This document shows positions 22,326 to 24,546 of a stretch of DNA of 64,000 nt, piece after piece (positions within the stretch are counted from its first letter, which is position 1; the number at the start of each line of letters is the position of its first letter). This stretch comes from a phage, in the sequence record PV467749.1; one strand, written 5' to 3'. Under the pieces are notes generated by a model, which was not told where the DNA came from, made no database searches, and was given only the letters and a program-made list of their open reading frames with translations. The position numbers and the translations under genes are program-made.

Positions 22326-22534
22326 TGCTTCTCCACTCATCTCCTGAAGAAATACAAGAAGTACTTAAGGAATTTGAGTTGAATAAGTCAGATATTAAAA
22401 CTGCATTAATGGAGTGTTCTGTTTATATGGAAAGTGTTGATTACGGAACACTACTTAATATGCCACTAATTGATAGAGACTTATTAGTTAAGTCTTTTAA
22501 TAAGAAAATTAAAAAACAAAACGAGAAGCACTAA
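22325..22534 (+). CDS. hypothetical protein (69 aa)
   Basis: ATG overlaps upstream stop (TAATG); followed by strong terminator. Confidence 0.5.
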   Translation: MLLHSSPEEIQEVLKEFELNKSDIKTALMECSVYMESVDYGTLLNMPLIDRDLLVKSFNKKIKKQNEKH

Positions 22535-22544
22535 CTCACAAGGA

Positions 22545-22572
22545 GCCAGCACATTGTTGCTGGTTTTTTTTT
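22545..22572 (+). terminator. intrinsic terminator after gene 22325..22534
   Basis: CCAGCA-CATTGT-TGCTGG followed by T9. Confidence 0.85.
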
Positions 22573-23372
22573 GGTTTTAAACTACAGAATTGATTGAATT
22601 GAATTATGAAAGGAATTAATTATTTTATAGTGAACTCATCTAACTCATTTCATTCGTTAGCTGAAGAATATTCGTTACTACGTAACTCATATTCATTTCT
22701 TATAATTAATTATAAAGAACTTTAAAAGATTTAATACTTGACGGGATTTGTTGAAGACATTTTCATCCCCCCGCAGGGGAATGAAGACAATAAAAAAGAG
22801 ACAATTAAGTCTCTTAATTCTTGACGCTGATGGTTTCAGCATTTATTGTATTGCGAATTTCTTAAAATTCATTAAGAACGAAAGCGGGTTGCTCTGTTTC
22901 TCTCTATCGCAGTCATGTGCAACGGTCGTCAGTCTTAATCATCCTGACACTCACCTGAAAGTCTATACAATCAAACTTCAGGCTGTTTATTAAATCACTT
23001 AATAAACTCCCTTAGCAAATCTGGTAAGGTGCGATCCTTATACATCTATCGAGGAACTCTCTGTATGCTTATCGGAGTTCTTTATTGAGCCGTGTCGCCG
23101 TGAGGGGTTCAAACTATGCCCACATCTAACGGGTTTCTTCTGCTCATCGCACTGTTGAACTGCTCATCTGCCATCTACATTTTCGATAGGATCAGGTTCT
23201 AATTTATATGCATTTCTGCATTCAACAGGATTGTCATCACTACAATTAACATTATAGCACCAAATTCAAAAGTGTCTCACTATTATGATAAAAAATTTAT
23301 AAAAAGTACATAATTCTTGAACATTGAAGTAACGCATAAATATTTTGATAAGAATTAGTTTAGTGGGGATTT

Positions 23373-23858
23373 ATGAAGAAAAGATTAAAAGATAGTAAAG
23401 AAGCTGCAAACTATCGAAATGAATTACTAAAGAAGCAAAAAGGAATTGATCCTATAATTAAGGAACCAATAACTAAGCCAGTACTTGATCACTATCACTT
23501 CGAGAATCAACATTGTCGCGGAGTACTCCAGAATGAGATAAACGCCTTTGAGGGTAAGGTTTCCAACGCATGGAACCGATATGGAAAGCATTTAACTGAT
23601 ATGCCATTACATGAAGTACTAAGAAACCTTGCAGATTATCTTGAAAAGAACAATAATATCCCACTGGAAGAACAGGTGATTCATCACACGGCACTAACTG
23701 TGGATGTAAACAAGTTTAAAAGGCTCCCTGCAACGCGTCAGAACGAGATATTGGGGTTATGCGGTATAGAGCCATTACCTAATACAAAAGAACGCTCAAA
23801 GAGAGCTAGAGAGCTTATTAAGAAAGGAATTCTCAATATAAATGAATACAAAAAATGA
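23373..23858 (+). CDS. Endonuclease VII-family protein (T4 gp49-like resolvase)
   Basis: LDHYHFENQHCRGVLQNEINAFEG aligns with T4 endo VII LDHDHELNGPKAGKVRGLLCNLCNAAEG; HEVLRNLADYLEK vs YLEWLENLLTYL; zinc-ligand cysteines apparently absent. Confidence 0.7.
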   Translation: MKKRLKDSKEAANYRNELLKKQKGIDPIIKEPITKPVLDHYHFENQHCRGVLQNEINAFEGKVSNAWNRYGKHLTDMPLHEVLRNLADYLEKNNNIPLEEQVIHHTALTVDVNKFKRLPATRQNEILGLCGIEPLPNTKERSKRARELIKKGILNINEYKK

Positions 23859-24546
23859 TATTTTTATAGATAAAGCAAATATAAAACATAACAACAAATA
23901 TGAATATACATTAGTTGAGTATGTAAATAATTACACTAAAGTTAAAATTATATGTAAGAAACATGGTATGTTTTCACAAACTCCAAATCACCATTTAAAA
24001 GGAAGTGGATGTAATGAATGTTACTTAGAAAGCAAGCACGATACTAAAGATGACTTCATAAAAAAATCCATGAAAGTTCATGGTGAATTATATGATTACT
24101 CAAATGTGATATATAAATCTTCAAAGAAAAAAGTTGAAATTATATGCAATAAACATGGTTCTTTTTATCAGAGGCCACATGAACATATATCAGGTAAAGG
24201 TTGTTCAGAATGTGGAGTTGGTGGTTACAAGAGAAGTAAACCAGGTCGTTTATATGTATATGAAGTTTTACAAGACGACAAAACTATAGCATACAAATAC
24301 GGAATAACTAATGGTACTATTAATAATAGAAAATATTACCATGAGTATCACTCTAACTTAAAATTTAATTGTGTTTATGAACTATATGATGAAGATGGTA
24401 ATGTTCCATATAATATAGAAAAAGCAATAAAAGCTGGCATGAAAAGTGTTTTTTTATCAAAAACTATTTTAGAAGTTGGGTATACCGAAACGATAGAACC
24501 GTCTTTATATGAAGATTTGATTAATATAATAAAAAAAGGGAGCTAA
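23842..24546 (+). CDS. homing-endonuclease-like protein: two zinc-ribbon-like modules + GIY-YIG-like (T5orf172) domain
   Basis: Repeats YEYTLVEYVNNYTKVKIICKKHGMFSQTPNHHLKGSGCNEC and YDYSNVIYKSSKKKVEIICNKHGSFYQRPHEHISGKGCSEC; C-terminal PGRLYVYEV...KYGIT. Confidence 0.8.
   Translation: MNTKNDIFIDKANIKHNNKYEYTLVEYVNNYTKVKIICKKHGMFSQTPNHHLKGSGCNECYLESKHDTKDDFIKKSMKVHGELYDYSNVIYKSSKKKVEIICNKHGSFYQRPHEHISGKGCSECGVGGYKRSKPGRLYVYEVLQDDKTIAYKYGITNGTINNRKYYHEYHSNLKFNCVYELYDEDGNVPYNIEKAIKAGMKSVFLSKTILEVGYTETIEPSLYEDLINIIKKGS

Follow-up and report, generated by a model that had tools for sequence, protein, structure and literature searches.

A minus-strand gene in Asteriusvirus jumbo phages very probably encodes a large non-coding RNA with several pseudoknots

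The locus

The 64,000-nucleotide (nt) stretch of sequence record PV467749.1, referred to here as the window, belongs to a jumbo phage of the genus Asteriusvirus (121Q/PBECO4 group) and carries a gap at positions 22573-23372, between a plus-strand terminator and an endonuclease VII gene. The element in this gap is very probably a minus-strand gene whose product is a large and elaborately folded non-coding RNA, apparently of an undescribed family, that would act in trans as an independent molecule and be synthesized by the host RNA polymerase. A conserved sigma-70-type extended -10 promoter and, in most copies of the element, a terminator bracket a conserved block, and this block contains about 20 helices and four to five pseudoknots that are maintained by compensatory changes. 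Large RNAs of bacteria and phages with many conserved pseudoknots are rare, and because those of known function are mostly ribozymes or core machines, a new RNA of this kind would be a strong lead to new RNA biochemistry.

Over positions 22400-23500 the window shares 99.9% identity with phages EC.P1, BF17 and Turkey3, and about 92% with 121Q, PBECO4 and G17. The gap is left blank in the annotation of G17 and carries only a 'repeat_region' in that of UE-S1. The features that bound or overlap it, including three short open reading frames (ORFs), are:

22540-22569, plus strand: terminator of 12 pairs followed by a T-run (terminator scan)
22606-22725, plus strand: ORF of 39 amino acids (aa)
22693-22842, minus strand: ORF of 49 aa
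22748-22993, plus strand: ORF of 81 aa with a TTG start
23373-23858: endonuclease VII gene (PHROG 'endonuclease VII'), bounding the gap on the right

The original prediction, made from the sequence alone, had described an island devoid of convincing ORFs to the right of a strong terminator. The terminator at 22540-22569, with its 12 pairs and T-run, agrees with this, and a six-frame scan for ORFs of at least 30 aa returns no credible gene in 22573-23372, only the three short ORFs listed above, with zero in any of the six frames in 22993-23373. The GC-richer centre is likewise borne out (0.42-0.45 in 200-nt windows from 22900 and 23000, compared with 0.25-0.29 in the flanks), as are two CTTGACG boxes in a common context (tttaataCTTGACGgg with the box at 22737-22743, and cttaattCTTGACGct with the box at 22820-22826). 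As a pair of plus-strand -35 boxes these were rejected, since they read CTGACG in most relatives and are the complements of minus-strand CGUCA(A/G) motifs. Promoter-like matches in the region show no excess over shuffled sequence (5 compared with 5.4), whereas terminator-like sites do (4 compared with 0.4 expected). What had been overlooked is the minus strand, the existence in the genome of four paralogous copies, of which this element is one, and its occurrence in bacterial islands.

Layout of the RNA gene

All alignments share one layout when read in the minus-strand sense, namely a promoter, a body of about 450 nt made of invariant stretches alternating with hairpins of variable sequence, a terminator and a tail. 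In the window copy these parts are:

23280-23251, minus strand: promoter, with a -35-like GTGAGA/GAGACA at 23280-23273 and an extended -10 TGcTATAAT at 23259-23251 (TATAAT at 23256-23251)
22792-23246, minus strand: predicted RNA body, about 450 nt from start to terminator U-run, or about 510 nt including the conserved tail
22820-22826, minus strand: first CGUCAAG motif, complement of plus-strand CTTGACG, with CGUCA invariant in 47 copies
22815-22792, minus strand: intrinsic terminator T1, an AGAGAC/GUCUCU stem (22814-22809 with 22802-22797) and a U-run to 22792, also returned by the terminator scan
22762-22785, minus strand: hairpin H2 (helix 21), UUCAUUCCCC UGC GGGGGGAUGAA, downstream of T1
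22737-22743, minus strand: second CGUCAAG motif, complement of plus-strand CTTGACG and the 3' limit of element conservation
22640-22736, minus strand: downstream flank, outside the RNA, with AACGAAUAUUCUUCAGC, a putative degraded UP-element and -35 of an early promoter

The promoter matches the consensus at 10 of 12 positions, plus the TG, in a scan of the minus strand. The combination of TGnTATAAT with a TG(A/G)(A/G)AC box about 17 nt upstream is present in all 46 correctly trimmed rows of the MAFFT alignment of 47 copies (A2; row L005 was set aside) and also in the bacterial copies. This motif is of the 'divergent RpoD-like' type (TGAAACG -35, TATA -10) of phages CBB and GAP32 (PMC5259590). 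From its position, transcription would start at about 23246-23243. At the other end, the T1 stem is 97.5% paired, with five of its six pairs double-changed, among the 27 of 47 copies that have T1, and is followed by U6-7; in the remaining copies the hairpin is missing or another hairpin precedes the U-tract. The 3' arm of H2, GGGGGGAUG(A/G)AA, is near-invariant and its 5' arm alternates between C-G and U-G only, a pattern that fits folding of the minus-sense strand. Phage and bacterial copies cease to be alignable immediately past the second CGUCA(A/G) box.

Beyond this limit, an alignment of the flanks of 16 representative copies shows the early promoter intact, as AAAUUCUUUGACA, behind other copies. 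The corresponding flank of the window copy is probably a decayed remnant of this promoter, which suggests that the window copy has lost its downstream operon by rearrangement. In several paralogues (L025:1874-2402 (-), L021:2830-3376 (+), L047 and L050; A2 columns 10-45) a hairpin with U6-7 stands right behind the -10 box, and might serve as an attenuator, protect the 5' end or terminate the operon upstream. Many copies, including bacterial ones, also have an optional hairpin module of about 35-45 nt with a conserved UACAAUAUAG(A/U)U(C/G)CGUCC, at one or both of two sites in the RNA (A2 columns ~346-390 and 524-556; for example L019:4306-4888 and L002:3334-3872). It is not found in the window copy, and may be what is annotated as a 'repeat_region' in UE-S1.

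Helices and pseudoknots

First RNAalifold runs on the raw MAFFT alignment gave noisy long-range pairs, and the structure was therefore built by hand, with helices found by eye from compensatory changes and then tested on A2. The tested fold has 113 pairs in 21 helices, including four pseudoknots. In the window copy, and in the order of the RNA, the 5' domain comprises:

23007-23228, minus strand: 5' domain, helices P1-P9
23228-23221 with 23159-23152, minus strand: P1
23220-23209, minus strand: P2, a hairpin with a GAAA loop
23195-23168, minus strand: P3, with the conserved loop GAAAAUGUA
23149-23163, minus strand: a fifth pseudoknot, extra closing pairs (G-C, N-N', A-U) around the 3' strand of P1, from RNAalifold
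23146-23142 with 23090-23086, minus strand: P4, 100% paired; three of five pairs vary, each between two Watson-Crick types
23132-23129 with 23101-23098, minus strand: P5, 100% paired
23095-23093 (ACA) with 23044-23042 (UGU), minus strand: pseudoknot PKa, 100% paired in the 47 copies and 94.7% in the independent set described below
23080-23075 with 23059-23054, minus strand: P7, 97% paired; six of six pairs double-changed
23069-23066 (AGCA, in the P7 loop) with 23017-23014 (UGCU), minus strand: pseudoknot PKb, 87% paired; three of four pairs double-changed
23040-23025, minus strand: P8
23014-23007, minus strand: invariant UAAGGGAG

The 3' domain, which is the best-conserved part, comprises:

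22826-22982, minus strand: 3' domain, also present in a divergent metagenomic subfamily
22982-22975 with 22962-22954, minus strand: P10
22971-22965 (AUUGUAU, in the P10 loop) with 22851-22845 (AUACAAU), minus strand: pseudoknot PKc, seven pairs, 94.5% paired, five double-changed; also found by RNAalifold
22948-22928, minus strand: P11
within the 3' domain, minus strand: invariant CGACCGUUGC
22923-22919 (GUUGC) with 22892-22888 (GCAAC, in the P12a loop), minus strand: pseudoknot PKd, 100% paired in the 47 copies and in 27 independent sequences
22911-22907 with 22856-22852, minus strand: P12, 100% paired; four of five pairs covary; 95-100% in the independent set
22904-22900 with 22884-22880, minus strand: P12a, 100% paired; four of five pairs covary; 95-100% in the independent set
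22878-22859, minus strand: P14
22840-22826, minus strand: P15

The six helices that are 100% paired (P4, P5, PKa, PKd, P12 and P12a) mostly alternate among two to four pair types. Two of the three PKa pairs covary (UA to CG and GC to AU), and the fifth pair of PKd is CG in 28 copies, UA in 17, AU in one and GC in one. The PKb pairings seen by eye include AGCA:UGCU, AUCG:CGAU, UACAU:AUGUA and AACA:UGUU. For the fifth pseudoknot, RNAalifold columns 142/155 are occupied by UA (20), AU (15) and CG (12), with zero broken cells. Pairing of the 5' leader with the 3' tail as a closing helix was rejected, since cognate pairings there were no better than non-cognate ones.

Tests of the fold and of the strand

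Over the 47 copies, 84.4% of cells are in standard pairs, compared with 39-43% when the 3' partners are slid by one to three columns. The same control gives 94-173 double-changed cells compared with the 756 observed, and 27-44 pairs with a double change compared with 82 of 113. An independent set was formed by 27 sequences that had not been used in deriving the fold (from metagenomes, bacterial genomes, E. coli and RaK2), none of them reaching 95% identity with any of the 47. In this set P3, P4, P5, PKa, PKc, PKd, P12 and P12a are 86-100% paired, compared with 0-56% when slid. The length-variable P1, P2, P10 and P15 score poorly in the fixed-column alignment of this set, which is regarded as a problem of alignment, each copy having by eye its own hairpin there. 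RNAalifold in turn re-finds nine helices (P4, P5, P7, P8, P12, P12a, P14, PKc and H2), with compensatory changes in 32 of 54 pairs.

The sense of the RNA is decided by four kinds of observation, all of which point to the minus strand. In the scans, the minus strand alone carries the RNA-gene promoter and terminator T1. The extension of P5 is swapped for CCG-UUCG-CGG in one subgroup and for a GAAA-capped stem in RaK2, and such caps are stable RNA tetraloops in the minus-strand sense only. Similarly, where helices of the independent set align cleanly, G-U occurs in 37 cells compared with three for A-C, and the changes in the H2 arms agree with the same sense.

Copies in phage genomes

A sensitive blastn search with the 800-nt gap as query finds window positions 22730-23214 conserved at 68-76% nucleotide identity in other genera, with four to five separate matching places per genome. 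The matches lie in Salmonella Munch, Cronobacter GAP32, Pectobacterium CBB, Yersinia fHe-Yen9-04, Serratia BF, the Erwinia pEa_SNUABM phages and Xanthomonas XbC2/XaC1, and partially in Klebsiella RaK2/K64-1. Per genome, fHe-Yen9-04, CBB, GAP32 and Serratia BF each have five loci, 121Q has four and RaK2 two; in the phage collection, Rak2-like phages are the sole carriers. Exact-pattern scans of IMG/VR together with nhmmer yielded 46 distinct copies of full length, which fall into 16 clusters at 80% identity, and a broader pattern found 86 metagenome loci and five bacterial loci. All of the IMG/VR matches are on jumbo-phage contigs or fragments thereof.

No second copy lies within the 64-kb window. 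The near-identical, unannotated genome TH47 has three further copies, at about 49.4, 146.0 and 345.4 kb, which are 72-80% identical to the window copy and in the same orientation, so that its four copies stand at 49, 146, 262 and 345 kb. In CBB the same slot as that of the window copy, between CBB_249 and the endonuclease VII gene CBB_248, is occupied, and for this reason the copies are judged to be old and individually kept. The 146 kb copy of TH47 is directly downstream of a sigma-70-family gene (L005:47281-48246 (-); Pfam Sigma70_r2, r3), as is the RaK2 copy examined (L150:3064-3960 (-)), and this site may be the ancestral location. The other TH47 copies sit among small early-type genes.

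In a divergent metagenomic subfamily (L083, L088, L094, L118, L121, L123, L133 and L134) the 3' domain and the G-rich hairpin are retained along with the promoter (TGTTATAAT), the 5' domain is another one, and extra conserved sequence occurs downstream. In this subfamily ACGAAG replaces both CGUCAG boxes together, which is not accounted for by any model.

ORFs of endonuclease-type PHROGs (HNH or other) adjoin three of the four Asteriusvirus copies (window 23842-24546 (+), L005:46553-47197 (-) and L008:41324-41965 (-)). The two in TH47 are paralogues with 46% identity, and these ORFs may be free-standing homing endonucleases that have settled beside a conserved sequence. In RaK2, ORF245 (L150:2488-2694) is annotated over the 3' part of the RNA element. 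This and several other public 'hypothetical proteins' of jumbo phages that are drawn across the element are probably spurious rather than genes, with the corresponding consequence for annotation.

Copies in bacteria

Full-length homologues with the same promoter are found on the chromosome of Serratia fonticola GTA-SR07 and in Serratia sp. 2723, Silvania hatchlandensis and a metagenome-assembled genome of the Enterobacteriaceae, the bacterial copies having nhmmer E-values of 1e-78 to 1e-127. Among 5,426 complete E. coli genomes two have a copy (nhmmer E = 8.5e-127), and no copies were found on plasmids. In these rare and mutually unrelated integrated elements of enterobacteria the copies occur singly, and their surroundings vary from case to case. 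A large serine recombinase adjoins three loci, and a CI-like repressor (helix-turn-helix domain and S24 peptidase) adjoins two, with copies L059 and L060 converging on it. No conserved protein partner was found beside the phage and bacterial copies, and the window, CBB, L059 and L060 copies have no same-strand gene downstream. The window copy faces plus-strand genes convergently, an arrangement that CBB shares.

In E. coli LR-29-1 (NZ_AP027515; L149:9999-20343) the island that holds the copy is about 10 kb long and adjoins ffs, the gene of the signal recognition particle RNA. This island also contains integrase fragments, IS3, a small serine recombinase and the candidate defence system PDC-M45 (DuOB, DUF488 and mSLOG/DUF4326); the RNA copy itself (L149:13993-14581; about 3478975-3479563 of NZ_AP027515) is full-length and unannotated. 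The S. fonticola copy is accompanied by two ParB_N/RepB-like genes and a duplicated rof.

At the S. fonticola GTA-SR07 locus (L062:61-5490) a large serine recombinase and the RNA element are found with two tandem rof genes, 98% identical to each other, beside tilS. The arrangement looks like that of an element integrated at rof.

Coding potential, known RNA families and mobility

No conserved reading frame was found among the copies; the longest ATG ORF has a median length of 15-27 aa, depending on the frame, and the indels do not come in multiples of three. ARAGORN returned zero tRNA or tmRNA genes on both strands of the whole window. Rfam 15 was scanned with cmscan, at E<=10 for the window copy and E<=5 for eight others, taking in group I and II introns, RNase P, 6S, GOLLD, ROOL, OLE, raiA, HEARO/omega-RNA and riboswitches; only weak terminator-like or chance matches appeared, none of them in the core and none recurring. 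These two scans agree with the original prediction that the region has neither a tRNA cloverleaf nor a group I intron core. A frameshifted known gene, which had been named there as a possible refutation, was likewise not seen, in that there is no ORF trace, a result obtained without a translated homology search of the element or a protein-database search with the 81-aa ORF.

Of the two interpretations first offered for the island, that of a structured non-coding RNA is upheld by covariation, by conservation across genera and by the element having its own promoter and terminator. The other, a decayed mobile element or intron tied to the adjacent nuclease genes, is not supported, in view of the occupation of the same syntenic slot in CBB and the absence of terminal inverted repeats, of any ORF trace and of a match to an intron or other Rfam family.

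No terminal inverted repeats join the ends at about 22737 and 23280, and a miniature inverted-repeat or other non-autonomous transposon was rejected on this ground and because the paralogues are 72-80% identical and syntenic across genera. A cis leader or antiterminator (of the HK022 put type) or a riboswitch would be expected in the 5' part of the transcription unit that it controls, and the window, CBB, L059 and L060 copies do not have such a position; other copies do have genes downstream. No GC-skew inflection was found at the copies. A description of this RNA was not found in the literature searched, which included jumbo-phage reviews and did not cover all journals.

Proposed role and alternative explanations

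Because the promoter is of the sigma-70 extended -10 type and is also found in the bacterial copies, the RNA would be transcribed by the polymerase of the host. Transcription would come early in infection and give a high dosage; that the amount of RNA matters is suggested by the several copies of the gene in jumbo phages. It would act in trans, as a free-standing molecule and not as a leader, an origin or a coding region, which we infer from its own promoter, from the lack of a constant protein neighbour and from the several copies without a same-strand gene downstream. Most likely it would bind or trap a conserved host factor, or be an RNA-only machine (a ribozyme or an RNA assembly), to the benefit of mobile elements in conflicts between phage and host or between phages. 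This proposal starts from the observation that host components are the only ones shared by the infection with a jumbo phage, the prophage-like elements and the defence island. More tentatively, the RNA may represent a new class of large multi-pseudoknot RNAs on the scale of GOLLD, ROOL and OLE, with a biochemical role unlike that of known RNAs, as a ribozyme, an RNA-only assembly or a host-factor trap, kept at two to five gene copies by the phages and captured by integrated elements and defence islands of their hosts as a shared weapon or decoy; this is a serious possibility, somewhat short of probable.

Several points weigh against the interpretation as a stand-alone minus-strand RNA gene. 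When columns are shuffled, none of 500 shuffles reaches the observed values for three of five whole-structure measures, and because this control ignores sequence relatedness, more weight is placed on the slid control. Strand-symmetric stem counts on the first MAFFT alignment do not separate the strands, with a bias from the T-rich plus strand, and shuffled sequences fold less well than either strand does (z = -3.4 and -2.8). H2 and the second CGUCAG box sit beyond the predicted terminator, and an RNA running from promoter to terminator leaves them unexplained. Moreover, the perfect hairpin and U-run found early in some paralogues are so placed that termination there would end the RNA at a length of about 35 nt. 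Behind many copies lie an early promoter and same-strand genes, which leaves room for a cis role of those copies, and the host-directed function is a conjecture. Finally, no transcriptome of a Rak2-like enterobacterial phage was found in the literature, so that expression, RNA ends and abundance are inferred.

The conservation of sequence past the terminator is one of the features that would be expected if the element were a replication origin with a primer or R-loop transcript, similar to ColE1 RNA II or the T4 middle-promoter origins oriF/oriG, the copies being multiple origins and the G-run hairpin and CGUCAG boxes transition or initiator sites. Four to five copies are dispersed over a 350 kb genome of a phage of the T4 superfamily, the RNA is promoter-driven and about 0.5 kb long, and its 3' region has a G6 run and a direct repeat of the CGUCAG box at a spacing of about 83 bp (about 53 bp without T1), the two boxes changing together in the divergent subfamily; AACGAA repeats also occur downstream of copies. 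However, the pseudoknots, tetraloop swaps and invariant junctions exceed the needs of known primer transcripts, and there are copies flanked by an integrase and cI, or located in a defence island that has no replication genes. In addition, GC skew does not inflect at the copies, every copy has the same direction, and the terminator precedes the supposed transition site. An origin is therefore considered unlikely. A cis-acting leader (a processive antiterminator, attenuator or insulator) that governs read-through into the early genes behind most copies is improbable to the same degree. It would explain why the 146 kb and 345 kb copies of TH47 head arrays of small same-strand genes, why there is a terminator at the 3' end and in some copies another just after the promoter, and why an early-type promoter lies behind many copies. 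However, downstream of the window copy, which keeps its synteny as far as CBB, there is no gene on the same strand. The island copies L059 and L060 are convergent with cI, the downstream genes own a promoter, and the terminator stem has no conserved alternative pairing.

More doubtful still is an RNA belonging to a selfish element, either as guide or partner of the homing-endonuclease-like genes or serine recombinases or as a mobile non-autonomous element in its own right. The genomic contexts are unrelated, HNH-endonuclease-like ORFs adjoin three of four Asteriusvirus copies and a large serine recombinase stands beside three bacterial loci, but no one protein family accompanies all copies, and homing endonuclease genes often settle next to any conserved sequence. 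Neither terminal inverted repeats nor target duplications are seen, the paralogues are old (72-80% identical) and syntenic across genera, and there is no obvious variable single-stranded guide segment and no match to HEARO/omega-RNA or any other Rfam family. Least probable of all, to the point of being hardly credible, is a decayed remnant of a gene, intron or mobile element, or a plus-strand regulatory region with two TTGACG promoters. An ORF-free gap next to nuclease genes would agree with the former and one promoter-like match (TTGACG, 17 nt, TATTGT) with the latter. However, base pairing is under purifying selection, with covariation that contradicts decay, and the element is conserved across genera and in bacteria with no ORF trace, whereas most relatives have CTGACG in place of the boxes and shuffled sequence has promoter-like matches at least as often.

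The interpretation as a trans-acting RNA is open to experiment in culturable E. coli phages (121Q, PBECO4, phAPEC6 and G17), with predicted boundaries of the RNA, and an alignment of more than 70 diverse sequences with natural minimal variants is available as a resource. Taken together, the several copies in jumbo phages and the presence of captured copies in prophage-like elements and in a candidate defence island suggest a role that depends on dosage, in infection or in conflict between elements.

Comparison with known systems

The RNA resembles GOLLD, ROOL, OLE and raiA (Rfam; PMC12286853, PMC5737381) in being longer than 400 nt, with many covarying helices and pseudoknots, highly conserved junction nucleotides and optional peripheral hairpins, in lacking an obligatory protein neighbour and a known function, and in being carried by phages, prophage-like elements and bacterial chromosomes. 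It differs from them in having no sequence or covariance-model similarity to any of the four, in its two to five paralogues per phage genome and in having Enterobacterales and their jumbo phages as hosts. In contrast to GOLLD and ROOL, it is not beside tRNA genes, there being no tRNA in the 64-kb window.

With tmRNA (SsrA) it would share the character of a mid-sized stable RNA built largely of serial H-type pseudoknots, its stability being predicted. The plus strand carries GACGGGAUUUG, which we take to resemble the 5' region of tmRNA. However, the functional strand is the opposite one, the RNA has no tRNA-like domain, tag frame or CCA end, and neither ARAGORN nor Rfam gives a match.

The element resembles ColE1 RNA II in specifying a promoter-driven, structured RNA of about 0.5 kb with a G-rich segment near the 3' end, and T4 oriF/oriG in being one of several promoter-containing elements per T4-type genome. 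To our knowledge, multiple covarying pseudoknots are not a feature of the transcripts of either system, and the present element is also found in islands without replication functions.

In the Pseudomonas jumbo phage PA5oct four 'lncRNAs' have been defined by RNA-seq, which are ORF-free, highly transcribed and 236-619 nt long, ncRNA002 being 451 nt (PMC7318152). PA5oct is a distant relative of Rak2-like phages, and the likeness lies in ORF-free regions of similar size; a search of its ncRNA001 and ncRNA002 with the family profile (nhmmer) detected no similarity at the sequence level, without a covariance-model comparison. The divergent RpoD-like promoters of CBB and GAP32 are of the same type as the promoter of the RNA gene, but the paper that reports them assigns the motif to protein genes and describes no RNA gene (PMC5259590). 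The same type of promoter is used outside phages, by the bacterial copies.

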